The translations under genes and the position numbers were made by a program. A DNA stretch of 64,000 nucleotides from an uncultured Alphaproteobacteria bacterium (GTDB lineage Bacteria; Pseudomonadota; Alphaproteobacteria; Sphingomonadales; Sphingomonadaceae). Each line of letters opens with the position of its first letter. Position 1 is the first letter of the stretch. The DNA lies in the NCBI GenBank assembly GCA_966205705.1, contig CBIHKY010000009.1, positions 401 through 64,400 of the forward strand, read 5' to 3'. The notes under the pieces were generated by a model, which was not told where the DNA came from, did no database searches, and worked only from the letters and a program-made list of their open reading frames with translations. Positions 49,459-58,588 of this stretch are shown piece by piece.

Positions 49459-49547
49459 CGGTGCGCCTGCCATGATCGTTCGTGACGAATGGGGGTGGAG
49501 CCTTTGCAGCTTTTGACGCGACCGCTCTCACCCGCTACCGGCACTGC

Positions 49548-50300
49548 ATGATCGCTCTCTTGTCCCCCGCCAAAACGCTCGATTTCGAGCGTGCTCTTCC
49601 GCCGCTCGAGGTTTCAACGCCGCATTTTGCGCAGGAGGCGCAGAGCCTCGCGAAATCTGCTGCCAACCTGACGCAGAAGAAGCTGAGCGAATTGATGCAT
49701 ATCTCGCCTCGTTTGGCTGAGCTCAACGCCCATCGCTTCCGCGATTTTGCCGAATTGCCTGAGCGTCAGGCGCTCTTCGCGTTCGCTGGCGATGTTTATA
49801 CGGGCTTTGAGGCCTATACGCTGGATGAAGCGGGCGTGGCATTCGCGCAGGATCATGTGCGGATGCTCTCCGGCCTTTATGGCTTGCTCCGTCCGCTTGA
49901 CGCGATCCGGCCCTATCGGTTGGAAATGGGCACGCGTTGGGCGCCGCGCCACAAGAAGCTCACTGATTGGTGGGGCGATCGTATCGCGCAACATCTCCTG
50001 ACCCAACTGGCGGAAGAGGGCTCCGGCACGGTGCTCAACCTCGCCAGTCAGGAATATTATGCAGCGGTAGCGGGCAAGCTGCCCGGTATCCGCGTGATCG
50101 AGGTGGAATTTCGCGAGCCGGGGCCCGATGGCCCGCGCTTCATCAGCTTCAACGCCAAGCGTGCCCGCGGCATGATGGCGCGCTGGCTGTGCGAGCATCA
50201 CATTACCGATGTTGAGGCAATGCGCGGCTTCGATAGCGATGGCTATCGCTTCGATGCCGATGAGAGCGACGCCGACCGCTGGCGCTTCACCCGCGCATGA
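49548..50300 (+). CDS. yaaA: YaaA family peroxide-stress protein
   Basis: LLSPAKTLDF, F.GDVY.G, ILSGLYG.LRP.D.I.PYRLEMGT, LNLASQEY, AK.ARG.M. Confidence 0.93.
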   Translation: MIALLSPAKTLDFERALPPLEVSTPHFAQEAQSLAKSAANLTQKKLSELMHISPRLAELNAHRFRDFAELPERQALFAFAGDVYTGFEAYTLDEAGVAFAQDHVRMLSGLYGLLRPLDAIRPYRLEMGTRWAPRHKKLTDWWGDRIAQHLLTQLAEEGSGTVLNLASQEYYAAVAGKLPGIRVIEVEFREPGPDGPRFISFNAKRARGMMARWLCEHHITDVEAMRGFDSDGYRFDADESDADRWRFTRA

Positions 50301-51001: not shown

Positions 51002-51027
51002 GGAACCGAACATCGCGCTCAACACTT
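51002..51027 (+). promoter_or_regulatory. Weak candidate EcfG promoter for topoisomerase IB
   Basis: GGAAC-N19-TT; -10 degenerate and very close to the start codon. Confidence 0.25.
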
Positions 51028-51035
51028 AGCGCGAT

Positions 51036-52103
51036 ATGGACGATCTCTCAGAAAATATCATCGACCCGGCTGATGCTGCACAGAGCGCCGGGCTGCGCTA
51101 CATTACGGACGAAAAGCCCGGCATCACGCGGCGCAAAAGTGGCAAGGGCTGGTCCTATCGTAATCCGCGCGGCGAAAAGATTAGCAAGCCCGATGTGATC
51201 GCCCGCATCAACAAGCTCGCGATTCCGCCTGCTTATCAGGATGTGTGGATCTGCCCCTATGCCGATGGGCATATTCAGGCGACGGGGCGCGACGCCAAGG
51301 GCCGCAAGCAATATCGCTATCATGAGCGCTTTCGGGAGGTGCAGGAGAGCGCCAAATATGAGCATATGCTTGAGTTTGCCAAGCTGCTGCCCGGCATCCG
51401 CGCCAAATGCGCCGAACATATGAAACTGCCCGGCCTGCCGCGCGAAAAGGTGCTCGCGACCATCGTGCATCTGCTCGAAACCACCATGATCCGCGTTGGT
51501 AACGCCGATTATGTGAAGCAGAACAAGAGCTACGGCCTCACCACGCTGAATGATCGCCATGTGAAGATCGAGAAGGGCGAGCTGCGCTTCCGCTTCAAGG
51601 GCAAGAGCGGCAAGGAGTGGAATCTCAGCCACAAGGACCGGCGCGTCGCGAAGATCGTGCGTGAATGCCAGGATCTGCCGGGCCAGCATCTATTCCAATA
51701 TGTTGGCGAGGATGGCGAGCAGCACGAGGTCACCTCCAGCGATGTGAATGCCTATCTGCGCGAGATTGCAGGGCAGGGTGTCACGGCCAAATATTTCCGC
51801 ACATGGACGGGCACCGTGCTGGCCGCGATGGCGCTAAGCGAGTTCGAAGTGTTTGATAGCGATGCCGCCGCCAAGAAAAATGTCCGCGCCGCCATCGAGC
51901 AGGTCTCAGCCCGCCTTGGCAACACGCCGACCGTCTGCCGCAAATGCTATGTCCACCCCGCTATCATCGATGGCTATCTGGGCAAGGCGCTGGCGCTGGA
52001 ATTGCGCGAGGAAGTAGAGCGCGAACTGGTCGAGGATGTCGGCTCGCTGCGCCCGGAGGAAGCCGTCGTGCTCGCCTTCCTGCAAAAGCGCCTTTCCGCC
52101 TAA
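51036..52103 (+). CDS. DNA topoisomerase IB (bacterial, poxvirus-like)
   Basis: GRDAKGRKQYRYH, IRVGN..Y, F.GKSGK, FRTW.GT, LGNTP.VCRKCY.HP (catalytic Tyr intact). Confidence 0.95.
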   Translation: MDDLSENIIDPADAAQSAGLRYITDEKPGITRRKSGKGWSYRNPRGEKISKPDVIARINKLAIPPAYQDVWICPYADGHIQATGRDAKGRKQYRYHERFREVQESAKYEHMLEFAKLLPGIRAKCAEHMKLPGLPREKVLATIVHLLETTMIRVGNADYVKQNKSYGLTTLNDRHVKIEKGELRFRFKGKSGKEWNLSHKDRRVAKIVRECQDLPGQHLFQYVGEDGEQHEVTSSDVNAYLREIAGQGVTAKYFRTWTGTVLAAMALSEFEVFDSDAAAKKNVRAAIEQVSARLGNTPTVCRKCYVHPAIIDGYLGKALALELREEVERELVEDVGSLRPEEAVVLAFLQKRLSA

Positions 52104-52363
52104 CGCAGCTGACTATCCTTGCTCCCACGCCGGTTGATCCCGGCAGGCCGCGCGGTCTTGTCCCGGATCGCCTGACACGCAACGCAGGTCCGCGCACTCG
52201 GGAGTGCCTTGCGCCGCGCCTTGGCGATCTCCTCGCCGCAATCATCGCAATATTGCGAACCCTCGCCAGTCGGCATCTTCAGCCGCGCCGTTGCGACCGC
52301 ATCCGCAATCGTATCGTCGATCTGATCCTGAACCGCGCCATCCTGCGCCCAGCCATTTGCCAT
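52100..52363 (-). CDS. DksA/TraR family C4 zinc-finger protein (YbiI-like)
   Basis: MANGWAQDGAVQDQIDDT, C..CGEEI..ARR.ALP....CV.CQ, NRRGSKDSQLR. Confidence 0.93.
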   Translation of the reverse strand: MANGWAQDGAVQDQIDDTIADAVATARLKMPTGEGSQYCDDCGEEIAKARRKALPSARTCVACQAIRDKTARPAGINRRGSKDSQLR

Positions 52364-52391
52364 CACGCTCTCCATGTCCATGCATCATGTC

Positions 52392-52417
52392 AATGCGCCG
52401 GGTCGGCGCGTGGTTCC
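52392..52417 (-). promoter_or_regulatory. EcfG-type promoter for the DksA/TraR gene
   Basis: GGAAC-N17-CATT on the minus strand. Confidence 0.55.
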
Positions 52418-52454
52418 TCGCGCCGATCTTGCGCCATGTTAAGCCGAATTTTCG

Positions 52455-52479
52455 GGAACGCCCCTGCGCCGGAATGATT
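52455..52479 (+). promoter_or_regulatory. Candidate EcfG-type promoter for the YqcI/YcgG-DUF1989 pair
   Basis: GGAAC-N16-GATT. Confidence 0.45.
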
Positions 52480-52506
52480 GTCTTCAGCGACAGAGGAAAA
52501 AACAAA

Positions 52507-53193
52507 ATGTTGGTCAGTCAAACCGAATCCGAGCAGCTGAAGCTCGATTTTGAAGAGTTCATCCGCGACAAATCATTCCCATGTGTTGGCGCCAAATCCG
52601 CATTATCGCGCGGAACGTTGAACATCGTCACCGCATGGTCAGTGGAGAGTGCGTGGGACGATCTGACAATCCATAATGAGCTCATGAAATGGTCGCAGGG
52701 TTACAAGGATGATCCCGGCCTGTTCAGGAGCTTCGCCGTGATCTTCGCCAATCCCGCCCCGCTGGACGAACCACAATTCGAGCAGGCGCTCTGGGCTCGG
52801 CTGCAATCGCTGGCGGATAAGGACGCATGGCTTGGCCTGCCCTATGACGAGCGCGTCAGTTCGGATCCGTCGGATCCGCATTTCTCGCTCAGCTTTGGCG
52901 GGGAGGCTTTTTTCGCGGTGGGGCTCCACCCACGCGCCAGCCGCCCTGCACGGCGCTTCAAGCGCCCCGTCATCGTGTTCAATCTCCACGACCAGTTCGA
53001 GCAATTGCGGGCGGACCAGCGCTACGAGACCATCCGCGAGACGATCATCGAGCGGGACATTAGCCTGGCCGGATCCATCAACCCCATGCTCGCGCGTCAT
53101 GGCGATAGCAGTGAGGCGGCGCAATATAGTGGCCGTGAGGTCGATGAGGATTGGAAGTGCCCCTTCCATGATCCGCGCGCTGCCGCCGCATGA
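52507..53193 (+). CDS. YqcI/YcgG family (GntA/DcsA-like) putative heme enzyme
   Basis: FPCVGAK, F.F.FGGE.FF.VG.HP...R.ARRF, .FN...QFE.L; GAGG RBS. Confidence 0.82.
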   Translation: MLVSQTESEQLKLDFEEFIRDKSFPCVGAKSALSRGTLNIVTAWSVESAWDDLTIHNELMKWSQGYKDDPGLFRSFAVIFANPAPLDEPQFEQALWARLQSLADKDAWLGLPYDERVSSDPSDPHFSLSFGGEAFFAVGLHPRASRPARRFKRPVIVFNLHDQFEQLRADQRYETIRETIIERDISLAGSINPMLARHGDSSEAAQYSGREVDEDWKCPFHDPRAAAA

Positions 53194-53774
53194 GTGATCC
53201 GGCGCGCATTCCCCCCCGCAGCGGCGCGGCGTTCGAGCTGAAGGCAGGTCAGCGCCTTACGGTCATCGACCCCGATGGCATGCAGGTTGCAGATCTTCTC
53301 GCTTACAGCCGCGAGGATGTCTGCGAGGTGATCAGCAATGGCCGCACGCTGGATTATGAGGAAACGCTGCGCCTCACCACCGGCAATCGGCTCTGGTCGA
53401 ACCGGTCGCGGGTGATGCTCACGATCGAGGAGGATATGGTCGGCTGCCATGATTTTCTGCTCACGCCATGCAGCGTCGATACCTTTCTGCACTTCTACCC
53501 GGACAAGCCCCTCCATCGCGGCTGCTTCGGCAATCTTGCCGCTGCATTGGAGCCCTATGGCGTCGAGCCGGACATGATCCCGGTCGCCTTCAACTGCTTT
53601 ATGAATGTGCCGGTGAGCGAAACCGGCAAGATCAGCGTGTTGCCGCCGCTCAGCAAGGCGGGTGACAGGCTCGCGCTGCGCGCGGAAATCGATCTCGTCA
53701 TCGGCCTCACCGCCTGCTCGGCCTATGCGAGCAATGGCGGTAGCTTCAAGCCGATCGACTATGTGATCGACTGA
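53190..53774 (+). CDS. DUF1989 (urea carboxylase-associated) family protein
   Basis: G.QVADL, SNGRTLDY, HDFLLTPC, CFGNL, FN.FMNV, LTACS; ATGA overlap with the upstream gene. Confidence 0.9.
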   Translation: MSDPARIPPRSGAAFELKAGQRLTVIDPDGMQVADLLAYSREDVCEVISNGRTLDYEETLRLTTGNRLWSNRSRVMLTIEEDMVGCHDFLLTPCSVDTFLHFYPDKPLHRGCFGNLAAALEPYGVEPDMIPVAFNCFMNVPVSETGKISVLPPLSKAGDRLALRAEIDLVIGLTACSAYASNGGSFKPIDYVID

Positions 53775-53789
53775 TTATTTGCGCCTCGA

Positions 53790-56003
53790 TCAGAAGCGAT
53801 AGTCCCAACCCAGCGTGAAGCTGCGCCCACGGCCTGCGAAGAAGGCCAAACTGTCGTTGGGAAGCCGCGTGTCGCTATTATAATCGATATAGAATTTATC
53901 GAACAGATTCTGCGCGCTCAGGCTGATGCCGCCGATCGGCGTCTGGTAACGCAGATATGCATCGGTCACCGCATAACCGCCGAAATTATTGCGCTGATCC
54001 GGGTTCGCCTTGCCGTAGAAATTGCGCGACAGGTAGAATTGCGTCTGCAGGCGCGCCGAAATAGGCCCCTGATTATAGCTCACCGCCGCGTTGAAGCGAT
54101 CGGGCGAAATGTTTGTGCCATCCAGATCGGTATCCACAATGCCATCCACCCGGTCGCTATCATAGCGGCCGATGAGATGCGCATAGCCGCCTTGGATTTT
54201 CAGGCCCTCAATCGGCGTCTGTATGCCAAGATTGATCTCAAGCCCCTGAATTTCCACCCGCTGGCGCTGCACCTCAAAGATGCCATTGCCCGAGGCGATC
54301 AGAACCTGGCCCTTGTCGCTCGATGACCAGAAATAGGTCGCGCTGGCATCGAGCGGCCCGCGCTTCACTTCCAGACCAAGCTCGCGATTGTTGGAGATCA
54401 CCGGGCTGATGTCGAGAAAATTGTCGAGATCGACGCCGGGCGTGCTGATTGCGCGGGTGATGCGACCGATATCCGCCATCGTGTAGCCCTCGGCAAAGCT
54501 TGCATAAGCGCGGATGCCGGGGACTGGCTCCAGAATGACACCGCCGTTGAACAGCACATCCTCAAAGCTCGGCTTGCCGCCTGCAACGTTCACGCCGCCA
54601 TAGGTGGCAAGGTTGGGTGCAACATAGGTGTTGGAGGCCAGCGTGCGATAATCGTCGATCTTGACCGTCGCATTTTCCCAACGCACGCCGCCTGCAAAGC
54701 GCAATTTGCTGTCCAGCAGCTTGAGATTGGCCTGCGCGAACGGCGCGATGCTCTGGAACTCGCTTGGCGGCACCCAGATGCGCCCTGTTGCGATCAGGCG
54801 CTGCTCGGTCTTGTCGGCAATCGCATCCACACCAAGCGTGGTGGTCAGCGCCTCGAAGCCGGGAAACGCACGCTCATAGCTGAGCTTTGCGCCCAGTTTG
54901 CGAGAGCGATTTTCGGACTGGTCGAAGAGCGTGCCGATGGGCGCTAGGCTGGGGTCCTGGAAGGTTGCGGTGGCAGTCGGCTCGCCGCCGAACGTATCGA
55001 AATTGCGGTTGAAGAAAATCTGCGACACCAGATTGCCGCCCCACAGATCGCTATCCGTATAGGAAAGGGCGACGCTTTCCGTGCGGTTTGCTGCAGGCTT
55101 GCCCGGAGGTGTGCCGCGCGTCGCACTGGTAGGGATGCCGAAGGTACGGCTGCCCGCCACCGGCACATAACGCCCATAGCCATTCAGCTCATAACGGTTC
55201 GCCATCAGGTCCAGCCGTCCGGTATCGCCCACCTGCAAGCCGATGCGCGCAAAGACGTTCAACGCCTTGGAATCCTGCGTTTCACCCTGCGTCAGGTTGA
55301 TACCGATCGGCCGATCCTGCGCATCGTAGAACACGCCGCGCTTCTCGAACGATGCGCCAACCGTCACATCGAACACGCCCGCCTTATACTGCAGCAAAGC
55401 CGCCGCCTTGCCTCCATAACCGCCCTTTTCAAACCCGTCGCTTGCCGTGCCCTGCAGCAGCGCCCGGCCGGAGAGGCCTTCCTTCGTCGGCACGCCGACC
55501 GTCACCTGATTGACGATGCCGCCTGTGCCGCCAATGCCCTGCAAGGCGTTGGAGCCATAGATCAGCTCCACCCGGTCGATGAAGAAGCCATCGATGGTGA
55601 AACCGTCGCGGCTGCCATCGCGCAGGGGGGTCGTCTGCGGAATGCCGTTGATCGCATAGAGCGGCGAGCGCCCGCGCAACGTTTCGCCCGCGCCGGAGAG
55701 CTTGCCACGCGTTGGCGAGAAGCTGGGCGTCAGCACCGCGACCGCATCGGTCACCGAGCCTGAGATCGCGATCTGCTGGTCCAGTTCCTGCTTGTTGATC
55801 AGGTCGATGGTCATCGGCAGGGCGTTAGGCGGCAGGATGGTGCGCGCCGCCGTGATGACGATGTCACTGCCCTGACCATCGGCCACGCCCGCCGCATCAG
55901 CGCTCGGATCGGTCTGGGCGAGCGCCGGCATGGCGATGAGCCCTGCGAGGACAACGAGGCTGCCACCTCCGAACGATCCACGAAGCTGAGCGAAAGACGG
56001 CAT
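53790..56003 (-). CDS. TonB-dependent receptor (probable siderophore receptor, IutA-like)
   Basis: LRGR.PL..INGIPQ.TPLRDG, IDRVE.IYG.NA..G.G.TGG..N, C-terminal YRF. Confidence 0.92.
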   Translation of the reverse strand: MPSFAQLRGSFGGGSLVVLAGLIAMPALAQTDPSADAAGVADGQGSDIVITAARTILPPNALPMTIDLINKQELDQQIAISGSVTDAVAVLTPSFSPTRGKLSGAGETLRGRSPLYAINGIPQTTPLRDGSRDGFTIDGFFIDRVELIYGSNALQGIGGTGGIVNQVTVGVPTKEGLSGRALLQGTASDGFEKGGYGGKAAALLQYKAGVFDVTVGASFEKRGVFYDAQDRPIGINLTQGETQDSKALNVFARIGLQVGDTGRLDLMANRYELNGYGRYVPVAGSRTFGIPTSATRGTPPGKPAANRTESVALSYTDSDLWGGNLVSQIFFNRNFDTFGGEPTATATFQDPSLAPIGTLFDQSENRSRKLGAKLSYERAFPGFEALTTTLGVDAIADKTEQRLIATGRIWVPPSEFQSIAPFAQANLKLLDSKLRFAGGVRWENATVKIDDYRTLASNTYVAPNLATYGGVNVAGGKPSFEDVLFNGGVILEPVPGIRAYASFAEGYTMADIGRITRAISTPGVDLDNFLDISPVISNNRELGLEVKRGPLDASATYFWSSSDKGQVLIASGNGIFEVQRQRVEIQGLEINLGIQTPIEGLKIQGGYAHLIGRYDSDRVDGIVDTDLDGTNISPDRFNAAVSYNQGPISARLQTQFYLSRNFYGKANPDQRNNFGGYAVTDAYLRYQTPIGGISLSAQNLFDKFYIDYNSDTRLPNDSLAFFAGRGRSFTLGWDYRF

Positions 56004-56069: not shown

Positions 56070-56101
56070 AAGCTGCAAACTTTGGGGTGCCGGATTTCGT
56101 G

Positions 56102-58588
56102 ATGCGGTGGGTCTTGTTTCAATTGCACTGGCTGCTCGGCATCACGGCAGGACTCGTTCTGGCGGTGATGGGCGTTACCGGCGCGACGCTCAGCTTTGAG
56201 GATGAGATCCTCATGGCGCTCAATCCCGGCGTCGCTACCGTCACGCCAGGCGCAGGGCCATTACTTACCGGGCCGCAGCTTGCCGCCCGCGTTCTTGCGC
56301 AGCAGCCCGATGCCAAGATCACCCGCATCATCGTGCAGACCGATCCCGCGCTCGCGGCATGGGTGAGCTATACGCCTGCGGGCGAGAAGCGCGAGACCAG
56401 CTTTGTCGATCCGGTGAGCGGGCAATTGCTCGGGCCGGGCCGGGGGCATGGCCTGTTCGAGACCGTCACGCTCATCCACCGCTATCTCGCGTTGCCGGGG
56501 CAAGGCAATGGCTGGGGGCGGCAGATCACGGGCTTCTCCGCCATTGCACTCATCTATTTCTGCCTGTCCGGCCTCTATCTGCGCTGGCCCAAGCGCGCGC
56601 TCGATTGGCGCTCCTGGTTCCTGCTCGATCTGCGGATGACGGGCCGCAATCTCTATCGCGCGCTCCACACGATCATCGGCAGCTGGGTGCTGATCTTCTA
56701 TCTCATCAGCGGCTTCACCGGCCTGTGGTGGTCCTATGGCTGGTATCGCGATGGGGTGACTTATGTCCTCGTCGGTCAGGCGGAGAAAGCCGACCATAAG
56801 CCTGCAGGCGCGGGCAAAGCGGACGATATCCGCCCCGATATCGCACTGGCATGGCAGGGCTTTGAGCGGGAAACGAAAAAGGTCCACTATGCCTCGATTA
56901 CCGCATCCTTGCGCGATACCGGCGATGTCCAGTTCCGCGCCAAGCTGGATTGTGCTCGGCATGATCGTGTGTCGGATGAGCTGGTCATCAGCGGCGTGAC
57001 TGGCGCGACGATGAGTGCCGTGCCCTACAAGGATCGCGCGCTCGGGCAGGATATCGTCACCAGCATTTTCGAGATTCATCGCGGCGCGTATTTCGGTCTG
57101 CCGGGCCGCATCGCCATGCTGCTCTCCAGTCTCACCATGCCGCTGTTCACCATCACCGGCTTGCTGCTCTATCTCGGCAGACGCCGTCGCAAGCGTGCGC
57201 TTGCCGCTCTCTTGCGCGATGCTCCAGCACAGCAGCCAGCGCTGGCCACCGATGGGAGCGTCATCGTCGCTTATGCCAGCCAGACCGGATCGGCCGAGCG
57301 GCTCGCCCGGCTCACCGCGGCGTCGCTCCCCGGCGCGCGCCTGCTTCCTCTGCACAAGCTCGATGTGCCCACACTGGCCGAGACTCAGCAATTGTTTATC
57401 ATCGCCAGCACCTATGGCGAAGGCGAGCCACCTGACGCCGCGCGTGGTTTCACCCGCCGCATGATGGCCGCTACGAATGACCTGTCGCATCTGCGCTACG
57501 CCGTCATGGCGCTGGGCGATCGCGAATATCCTGATTTTTGCGCCTTCGGGCATAGCCTCGATCATTGGCTGCACGGCTGCGGGGCGGAGCGTCTGTTCGA
57601 GTTGATCGAGGTTGATGGCGATGATGCCAATGCGCAGCGCCAGTGGCAGCAGCAGCTTACAGGGCTGGGTGCGCGCACGGATCAGCCCGATTGGGCACCA
57701 GCGCCGATGGGCGAGTGGCGGCTGGTCGAACGCTGCCTGCTCAATCCCGGTAGCGCCGGTGGGCCAGCCTTTCACATCGCGCTGGAGCCGCTAGCGCCGG
57801 GCGATGCGGCATGGACGGCAGGCGTTATCTTCGAGGTGCAGCCCCGCCATGATCCGCGCCGCATCACTGCGTTCATCAAGGCGAGCGGCCTTGCCGATGG
57901 GGCGCAACTGCGCGAGGCGCTGGCCGGGCGCATCCTGCCGCCGCACGCCGATACCGCGCTGGATCCAACAGGCCTGCCACCGCTCGCGCATCGCGAATAT
58001 TCCATTGCGTCGGTGCCGTCATCGGGCCGTGTCGAACTCATCGTGCGGCAATGCGTGGCGGAGGATGGCCTGCTCGGCCTCGGCTCCGGCTGGCTCACAC
58101 ATGTGGCGCCGGTCGGCACGATACTCTCCGGGCGCATCCGCACGAATGCCGCATTCCATCCACCCGAGGATTCATCCAAGCCCTTGATATTAATTGGTAA
58201 TGGTACAGGGCTAGCCGGGCTTCTCGCACATCTGCATCACCGCGCGGCGGAAGGGGGAGCACCCTCCTGGCTGTTCTTCGGCGAGCGCGATCCTGATCAC
58301 GATGCCCTCCATGTGGGCAAACTGTGTAAACTCCGCACCAGCGGCGTGCTCGATCAAATCGATTTCGCCTGGTCCCGCGCATCCGAGGGCGGCTGCTACG
58401 TTCAACATCGGGTGGCGCAACGCAAGGATGAGATCGAGGCGCTCGTCAGTGCGGGCGCATCAATCTACATCTGCGGCAGCGTGCAAGGCATGGCCCCGGC
58501 GGTGCACGACGTTCTGGAGGGGATACTGGGCGCTGAGACACTGGAAGCGCTTTTGGAATCCGGTCGCTACCGCCGGGATATCTACTGA
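56102..58588 (+). CDS. PepSY-associated TM domain fused to flavodoxin and FAD/NAD(P) reductase domains (PiuB-like)
   Basis: FQLHW.LG, IH.G.YFG; YASQTGSAE, STYGEGEPPD, LGDREYP.FC.FG; REYSIAS, IGNGTG.A, ICGS; start could be GTG 56087. Confidence 0.88.
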   Translation: MRWVLFQLHWLLGITAGLVLAVMGVTGATLSFEDEILMALNPGVATVTPGAGPLLTGPQLAARVLAQQPDAKITRIIVQTDPALAAWVSYTPAGEKRETSFVDPVSGQLLGPGRGHGLFETVTLIHRYLALPGQGNGWGRQITGFSAIALIYFCLSGLYLRWPKRALDWRSWFLLDLRMTGRNLYRALHTIIGSWVLIFYLISGFTGLWWSYGWYRDGVTYVLVGQAEKADHKPAGAGKADDIRPDIALAWQGFERETKKVHYASITASLRDTGDVQFRAKLDCARHDRVSDELVISGVTGATMSAVPYKDRALGQDIVTSIFEIHRGAYFGLPGRIAMLLSSLTMPLFTITGLLLYLGRRRRKRALAALLRDAPAQQPALATDGSVIVAYASQTGSAERLARLTAASLPGARLLPLHKLDVPTLAETQQLFIIASTYGEGEPPDAARGFTRRMMAATNDLSHLRYAVMALGDREYPDFCAFGHSLDHWLHGCGAERLFELIEVDGDDANAQRQWQQQLTGLGARTDQPDWAPAPMGEWRLVERCLLNPGSAGGPAFHIALEPLAPGDAAWTAGVIFEVQPRHDPRRITAFIKASGLADGAQLREALAGRILPPHADTALDPTGLPPLAHREYSIASVPSSGRVELIVRQCVAEDGLLGLGSGWLTHVAPVGTILSGRIRTNAAFHPPEDSSKPLILIGNGTGLAGLLAHLHHRAAEGGAPSWLFFGERDPDHDALHVGKLCKLRTSGVLDQIDFAWSRASEGGCYVQHRVAQRKDEIEALVSAGASIYICGSVQGMAPAVHDVLEGILGAETLEALLESGRYRRDIY

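Follow-up and report, generated by a model that had tools for sequence, protein, structure and literature searches.

A conserved YqcI/YcgG-DUF1989 gene pair of sphingomonads as a probable stress-induced route for N-hydroxylation and cleavage of a guanidino compound

The 64,000-nt stretch of DNA analysed here (the window; contig CBIHKY010000009.1 of an uncultured sphingomonad, Sphingobium-like by its closest matches, with a genome of 3.74 Mb and 61% GC) contains on its forward strand two adjacent genes, which we call A and B. Gene A (52507-53193, ATG to TGA) encodes a 228-aa protein of the YqcI/YcgG family (YcgG type) and gene B (53190-53774, from its ATG) a 194-aa DUF1989 protein of the YcgI type with a predicted three-cysteine zinc site. 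We conclude that the pair is a stand-alone, stress-regulated module made of known kinds of enzyme and does not belong to natural-product tailoring. On the basis of sequence comparison, structural models and genomic context, its two enzymes are probably induced by stress, A to N-hydroxylate an arginine-like guanidino compound and B to cleave the hydroxylated product in a zinc-dependent reaction. In Alphaproteobacteria, the two genes most likely form a self-contained two-enzyme operon of the PhyR/NepR/EcfG general stress regulon. A preliminary description of this DNA had already proposed a two-step stress-induced route in which a guanidino compound is oxidised and then hydrolysed; this proposal is borne out in part, namely for the pair itself, its promoter and its context, and for the cofactor ligands of both families, which are kept in A and B. 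Literature searches by family, gene, COG, Pfam and PGAP names found no publication on the YqcI-DUF1989 pair.

The pairing of A with B lies far above chance. Two even whole-genome samples, one covering the class with 301 genomes and one the phylum (Pseudomonadota) with 401, contained 26 genomes whose YqcI gene scores above the cut-off, and in 23 of these a DUF1989 gene is adjacent (within ~110 nt), 22 times immediately downstream on the same strand and once convergent. The three exceptions are two genomes of one genus in which the DUF1989 gene is not adjacent, one of them also having a YqcI domain within a 4,900-codon open frame resembling a nonribosomal peptide synthetase (NRPS), and a third genome without any DUF1989 gene. 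In a Sphingomonadales set of 80 loci (one genome per species, the best 80 of at least 589 matches), B directly follows A in 75, the rest having B elsewhere on the contig (one locus), a contig that ends early (one) or A alone (three). The co-occurrence check suggested by the preliminary description thus came out in favour of a conserved pair. The A-then-B order is also seen in a relative of 36% identity (L087), on a Deinococcus ficus plasmid and on a Comamonas plasmid, and spans Alpha-, Beta- and Gammaproteobacteria, Deinococcus and other bacteria, the breadth beyond Pseudomonadota being based on a few contigs and plasmids. Single-chain A-B fusions occur as three representatives of clusters at 50% identity (P0150, P0251 and P0153), the last of which includes proteins of two Nannocystis isolate genomes. 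Among sphingomonads, B is the better conserved of the two (~72% identity vs ~64% for A).

Clustering of all open reading frames (ORFs) in 81 loci, i.e. the 80 Sphingomonadales loci and the window, revealed no third conserved gene. The flanks of the pair vary from genus to genus, with lineage-specific neighbours such as a Crp-like regulator (16 loci), FdhF-like plus FdhD proteins (14), DUF421 (12) and hemerythrin (7), and the major facilitator superfamily transporters that adjoin the pair in two relatives are not conserved. The distribution of YqcI is patchy: it is present in 8 of the 301 genomes sampled from the Alphaproteobacteria, and in the family to which the window belongs, 10 sampled genomes have it and at least 6 do not; copies also reside on sphingomonad megaplasmids. 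The genome studied here has only one gene of each family. In the window, the stop codon of A and the start codon of B share an ATGA overlap (53190-53193) and no Shine-Dalgarno sequence lies ahead of B, an arrangement that fits translational coupling of the two genes, as had been described; the identical 4-nt overlap is found in relatives L003, L004 and L113. Gene A has a ribosome binding site of its own (GAGGAA, 52493-52498), 8 nt ahead of ATG 52507, and a longer ORF starting at GTG 52204, which overlaps the divergent DksA/TraR gene, is an artefact.

The characterised YqcI/YcgG enzymes all N-oxygenate guanidines (PMC12866846; bioRxiv 2024.01.24.577118), and protein A matches the full family profile PF08892 (206.6 bits, cut-off 27; positions 1-211) as well as the NCBIfam GntA model NF041366 (247.5 bits, cut-off 145). 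Residues C26, R146, R149, N159, Q163, F164, N192, Q206 and P219 are invariant in an alignment of 32 diverse YqcI proteins, and the profile made from this alignment recovers AglA when searched against the PDB. In AglA, C44 is the axial thiolate, R166 forms a salt bridge with a heme propionate and F152 and F182 clamp the arginine side chain (PMC12866846). The alignment places C26 of A, in the FPC motif (FPCVGAKS), on C44 of AglA, the counterpart of ChmN C47, R149 on R166, F136 on F152 and F164 on F182; N159 and H161 fall on Q177 and R179. The top five Foldseek matches of the AlphaFold2 (AF2) model of A (pLDDT 93) are all AglA (9UBB/9UB3; TM 0.72-0.79, E ~1e-10). Taken together, the conserved ligand and clamp residues and the AglA-like fold mean that A carries, in its sequence and its predicted structure, every feature of the thiolate-heme guanidine N-hydroxylases. 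Nitric-oxide synthase (NOS) oxygenase domains, likewise thiolate-heme arginine N-hydroxylases, make up nearly all of the next ~20 Foldseek matches at values that are not significant (E 0.06-0.9, TM ~0.26); these matches may be due to partial topological convergence or to chance. NCBI labels the sphingomonad homologues of A (P0011, P0021 and many others) as 'guanitoxin biosynthesis heme-dependent pre-guanitoxin N-hydroxylase GntA'. The over-annotation is systematic, because the 145-bit cut-off of the GntA model is passed by proteins that have no guanitoxin cluster.

Protein B matches PF09347 with 185.7 bits (cut-off 27), and its sequence matches in the PDB comprise 3ORU (4e-26), 3DI4 and the trimethylamine N-oxide (TMAO) demethylase TDM (9Q59, 5e-11). 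Its AF2 model (pLDDT 93.8) resembles the DUF1989 crystal structures 3SIY, 3ORU and 3DI4 with TM 0.88-0.91. C94, C112, C176, D35 and D88 are invariant in 33 DUF1989 sequences; in a HMMER alignment with Paracoccus TDM, the three cysteines align with C285, C301 and C365, D35 with D220 and D88 with D279. The cryo-electron microscopy structures of TDM revealed that the zinc of the three-cysteine site binds the oxygen atom of TMAO (PMC13619132). In B, A178 and M138 take the places of TDM D367 and F327, in agreement with a different substrate. We rejected B as a TMAO demethylase: it scores 73.8 bits against the corresponding model NF053776 (cut-off 1100), and it is a single domain that has no GcvT/tetrahydrofolate (THF) domain and so does not have the full-length architecture. 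It was likewise rejected as an orthologue of the carboxyguanidine deiminase subunits CgdA/B, scoring far under both equivalog cut-offs (105.2 bits against 284.7 for TIGR03424 and 75.3 bits against 205.95 for TIGR03425). The preliminary description had drawn on CgdA/B as a precedent, which stands insofar as B belongs to the same DUF1989 family, but does not extend to orthology. In public records, B is named 'urea carboxylase-associated family protein', although no carboxylase is present.

Evidence for general stress control comes from the comparison of upstream regions. GGAAC lies 30-100 nt before the start of gene A in 54 of the 81 upstream regions of the same loci, in which it is the most enriched 5-mer; shuffled sequences had it in 5.8 on average (at most 13), and 9 were counted on the opposite strand. 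At 16-17 nt after GGAAC, the 54 sites have C in 41, G in 43, T in 52 and T/A in 50 cases. This form agrees with the published EcfG motif of Sphingomonas melonis, Erythrobacter litoralis and other species (PMC6599016; bioRxiv 641647). GGAAC-N16/17-(C/G/T)GT(T/A) also precedes 7 of 10 pairs from four other alphaproteobacterial families, the seven spanning three of them; the full EcfG motif was not found in three gammaproteobacterial-class loci. General-stress control of the orthologous group is thereby well supported at the level of promoter sequence. The corresponding site of the window, recognised from its sequence and by footprinting against the orthologues, is an EcfG-type promoter-like GGAAC-N16-GATT (52455-52479, forward strand): position 52455, given as the start of the pair in the preliminary description, belongs to its GGAAC and is not the start of gene A, and 27 nt separate its end at 52479 from the ATG of gene A at 52507. 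In the closest Sphingobium relative (L003), this place is taken, at the same spacing, by GGAAC-N16-GGTT, one base different from the window. The EcfG-dependent genes of S. melonis include some whose boxes read CATT, GATT or AATT, among them that of Ku, whose promoter was tested for EcfG dependence with a reporter (PMC6599016). A site that is equal or better would occur by chance in 70 nt of this genome with a probability of ~0.007, and no sigma-70-like promoter was found in the 125-nt intergenic region upstream of A. The genome also encodes PhyR (C22:24643-25416; model score 324.6 bits, cut-off 240), with an EcfG-like sigma gene beside it (C22:21500-21958), and has strict EcfG motifs before dps and other typical stress genes. 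Control of the window's own copy by the general stress response is likely, to judge from these features. The EcfG-like promoter named in the preliminary description is thus supported by the orthologous loci, by three further families and by the PhyR and EcfG-like sigma genes of the genome, but is weakened in the window itself by a non-canonical GATT.

In the mechanism that we propose, EcfG-RNA polymerase would transcribe the pair under stress, and A, as a thiolate-ligated heme protein, would use O2 and, as its electron donor, a housekeeping ferredoxin or flavodoxin, which we suggest because no dedicated reductase is linked to the pair. A would then N-hydroxylate an arginine-like compound, common in the cell, on its guanidino group. 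The arginine-like nature of the substrate is supported by the AglA clamp residues kept in A (F136 and F164), and its common intracellular origin by the lack of a transporter and by the wide phyletic spread of the pair. The resulting labile N-hydroxyguanidine may be handed directly from A to B, as suggested by the translational coupling, the fusions and the lack of another conserved partner. The zinc of B (C94/C112/C176) would bind the N-O oxygen, as the TDM site binds the oxygen of TMAO, and B would cleave the activated C-N or N-O bond in parallel to the deimination by CgdAB and the DcsA/DcsB sequence. B is predicted to yield either a ureido compound together with hydroxylamine or ammonia, or hydroxyurea together with an amine. 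The route may serve detoxification, nitrogen salvage or effector production.

A number of observations weigh against this mechanism. The -10 box of the window, GATT, is non-canonical and scores under the 5th percentile of the orthologous sites. Searches by name and by motif sequence found no entry for the pair in the stress-regulon papers on S. melonis, Sphingopyxis granuli, E. litoralis, B. diazoefficiens and R. etli. The pair has no linked redox partner, and three Sphingomonadales loci carry A without B nearby. TDM, the only DUF1989 enzyme to have been studied structurally, does not act as a hydrolase, and B has an alanine in place of its D367; B may therefore catalyse a reaction other than hydrolysis. 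Moreover, other YqcI subgroups adjoin unrelated partners (an amine oxidase or a MOSC/2Fe-2S/B3-4 cluster), and the substrates of the family may therefore extend past guanidines.

In an alternative explanation, the substrate is a different nitrogen compound, such as an amidine, amine, N-oxide or hydroxamate, or B acts before A; A would be a general thiolate-heme N-oxygenase and B a zinc enzyme preparing or cleaving an N-O compound. The order of the reactions is indeed not fixed by gene or fusion order, the DUF1989 domain of TDM works on an N-oxide, and a YqcI homologue of a Pantoea plasmid cluster has been reported to lower the levels of benzoxazinoids, which are cyclic hydroxamates (PMC11568528). 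The Rahnella equivalent of that cluster is without DUF1989. On the other side, each of the six family members with known biochemistry works on guanidino nitrogens. Since A also retains those AglA residues by which the arginine side chain is clamped and the guanidine oriented, and since the substrate of CgdAB, the other DUF1989 enzyme to have been characterised, is a guanidine derivative, we consider a non-guanidine substrate or a reversed order unlikely. It is also conceivable, with a still smaller probability, that the pair generates an effector rather than degrading its substrate. As an analogue of NOS independent of that enzyme, it would convert arginine via N-hydroxyarginine to hydroxylamine, HNO/NO or hydroxyurea, and it would be a widespread machine whose product signals, or arrests growth or DNA replication under stress, e.g. 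by inhibition of ribonucleotide reductase; we rate both the chemistry and this role as rather improbable. General-stress control, the fact that neither a transporter nor downstream catabolic genes are linked to the pair, and fusions suggestive of channelling of a reactive intermediate would all agree with such a function, as would the derivation of hydroxyurea from arginine by DcsA/DcsB, which, from general knowledge, follows the same logic. NOS oxygenase domains do come next after AglA in the Foldseek search of A, but this similarity is insignificant (TM 0.26), and a toxic product without a linked protection gene would be left unexplained.

Two further explanations are very improbable. If B were a carboxyguanidine deiminase subunit working with urea carboxylase in CgdAB-type guanidine assimilation, its weak TIGR03424/TIGR03425 matches and its public name would be accounted for, but membership is refuted by the scores themselves (105 and 75 bits vs cut-offs of 285 and 206). 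CgdAB needs two paralogues where this genome has a single DUF1989 gene, and B is constantly partnered by YqcI instead of a carboxylase. The neighbours of the pair include neither a urea carboxylase nor an allophanate hydrolase nor an inner-membrane transporter, and scanning 51500-54500 gave no Rfam match to a guanidine or other riboswitch at E<=5, from which we conclude that there is no guanidine riboswitch at the pair; on carboxylase, transporter and riboswitch alike, the preliminary description was correct. That A is a GntA/DcsA/AglA-like tailoring enzyme of a biosynthetic cluster has in its favour that it passes the GntA model (247.5 vs 145 bits). As the preliminary description had anticipated in placing the pair outside any secondary-metabolite cluster, neither the window nor the 80 related loci contain NRPS, polyketide synthase, ATP-grasp, arginase-like or other gnt/dcs genes, the flanks vary by genus, and it is the YqcI members not paired with DUF1989 that are found in NRPS-like contexts (G230). 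Our preferred explanation for the pair remains N-hydroxylation of an arginine-like guanidino compound by A and cleavage of the product by B.

Upstream of the pair in the window lies a run of genes encoding YaaA (49482-50300), an SDR protein and topoisomerase IB (51036-52103), followed by the divergent gene for a DksA/TraR zinc-finger protein (52100-52381, reverse strand; NF008243, 120 bits). The DksA/TraR gene has an EcfG-like site of its own, GGAAC-N17-CATT (52392-52417, reverse strand), ending ~10 nt before the start codon; the 125-nt intergenic region therefore has two back-to-back stress-type promoters, one ahead of A and one ahead of DksA/TraR. The arrangement of DksA/TraR plus pair is kept in the 98%-identical strain L113. 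GGAAC-N17-ACTT occurs at 51002-51027 (forward strand), 8 nt before the ATG of the topoisomerase IB gene; in Sphingomonas melonis, the gene for topoisomerase IB ranks with the top ones that depend on EcfG (PMC6599016). With yaaA included, the topoisomerase IB region looks like a small stress-gene island. Downstream, the pair is met by a convergent gene for a TonB-dependent, siderophore-type receptor (53790-56003, reverse strand). This gene is divergent from one encoding an 833-aa fusion of a PepSY-associated membrane region (PepSY_TM), a flavodoxin and an FNR-like NAD-binding domain (56087-58588, forward strand), probably a membrane ferric-chelate reductase. We considered this gene, 2.3 kb downstream, as a source of the redox partner of A and rejected it because it does not recur beside the pair in other genomes.

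The surroundings of YqcI genes elsewhere offered additional observations. On the Comamonas antarctica plasmid (L110, 4941-10062), the pair is followed by genes for a large glycosyltransferase and a UDP-galactopyranose mutase, and glycosyltransferase-like and sulfotransferase-like genes lie 2-5 kb off in seven Erythrobacteraceae-type loci (L011, L012, L041, L045, L059, L068 and L078). A second alphaproteobacterial YqcI copy (L107, G520:C2) stands alone and has GGAAC-N16-CGTT 162 nt upstream, and a Streptomyces YqcI gene without DUF1989 (L088, 5001-7431) is followed by a flavin amine oxidase gene. On the Rahnella sikkimica plasmid NZ_CP019065.1 (L108, 86945-92230), a YqcI gene of another subgroup leads a seven-gene cluster without DUF1989, in the order YqcI, SDR, hypothetical, 2Fe-2S protein, LysE, B3/4-domain protein and MOSC protein; a YqcI-B3/4 fusion also exists (P0173). 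This cluster resembles, in its first and last genes, the one of the Pantoea dispersa plasmid, which has been reported to be induced by, and to act on, maize benzoxazinoids (PMC11568528). The 'GntA' of the Pantoea/Rahnella benzoxazinoid clusters was set aside as a model for A, being of a different YqcI subgroup with no DUF1989.

The six characterised YqcI/YcgG enzymes all come from antibiotic or toxin clusters, while in the Pseudomonadota sample most members of the family sit in the stand-alone pair with DUF1989. Solving the pair would provide two poorly understood families with a reaction for a large share of their members, give a third known chemistry for the three-cysteine zinc site of DUF1989 and correct the widespread mis-annotation of sphingomonad proteins as guanitoxin biosynthesis GntA. 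It would also place an enzyme of defined function in the general stress regulon of Alphaproteobacteria, whose members have so far been mostly 'hypothetical'. Should the pair turn out to generate an effector, which we doubt, Alphaproteobacteria would deploy a small reactive N-O compound as an effector of their general stress response.

How does the pair compare with known systems? AglA, GntA, DcsA, ChmN, AmbT and Mhr24 belong to the same Pfam family as A and the non-canonical 'sandwich' fold is matched (TM 0.72-0.79 to AglA). A keeps the axial cysteine, the heme-propionate arginine and the two gating aromatic residues of AglA at an identity of only 18-20%, and has N159 and H161 in place of Q177 and R179. 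It differs from the six characterised members in lying outside a natural-product cluster, in its constant DUF1989 partner and in its general-stress promoter. Its candidacy as the GntA of a guanitoxin pathway was dismissed: the score is sufficient, but there is no gnt cluster, the neighbours being topoisomerase IB, DksA/TraR, the TonB receptor and the PepSY-flavodoxin protein. In D-cycloserine biosynthesis, DcsA N-hydroxylates arginine and the product is then hydrolysed to ornithine and hydroxyurea by DcsB, an arginase-fold manganese enzyme. This is the same hydroxylate-then-cleave logic, a comparison that we draw from general knowledge; in the pair, however, the second enzyme is a three-cysteine zinc DUF1989 protein unrelated to DcsB, and there is no dcs cluster. 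CgdAB shares its domain family with B and acts on a guanidine with an electron-withdrawing N-substituent, chemically akin to an N-hydroxyguanidine, but B is encoded by a single gene instead of a heteromeric pair and has no urea carboxylase/allophanate hydrolase context. TDM (9Q59, 9Q5A and 9Q5L) has a DUF1989 core with the same three-cysteine zinc site and D220 (D35 in B); B is without its extra N-terminal domain and GcvT/THF domain, and TDM is a demethylase, not a hydrolase. Finally, in comparison with the EcfG (ECF15) promoters, of consensus GGAAC-N16-17-CGTT, the site in the window differs in its -10 element, GATT instead of CGTT, but matches in its -35 element, spacing and position, and the orthologous loci have the full consensus.

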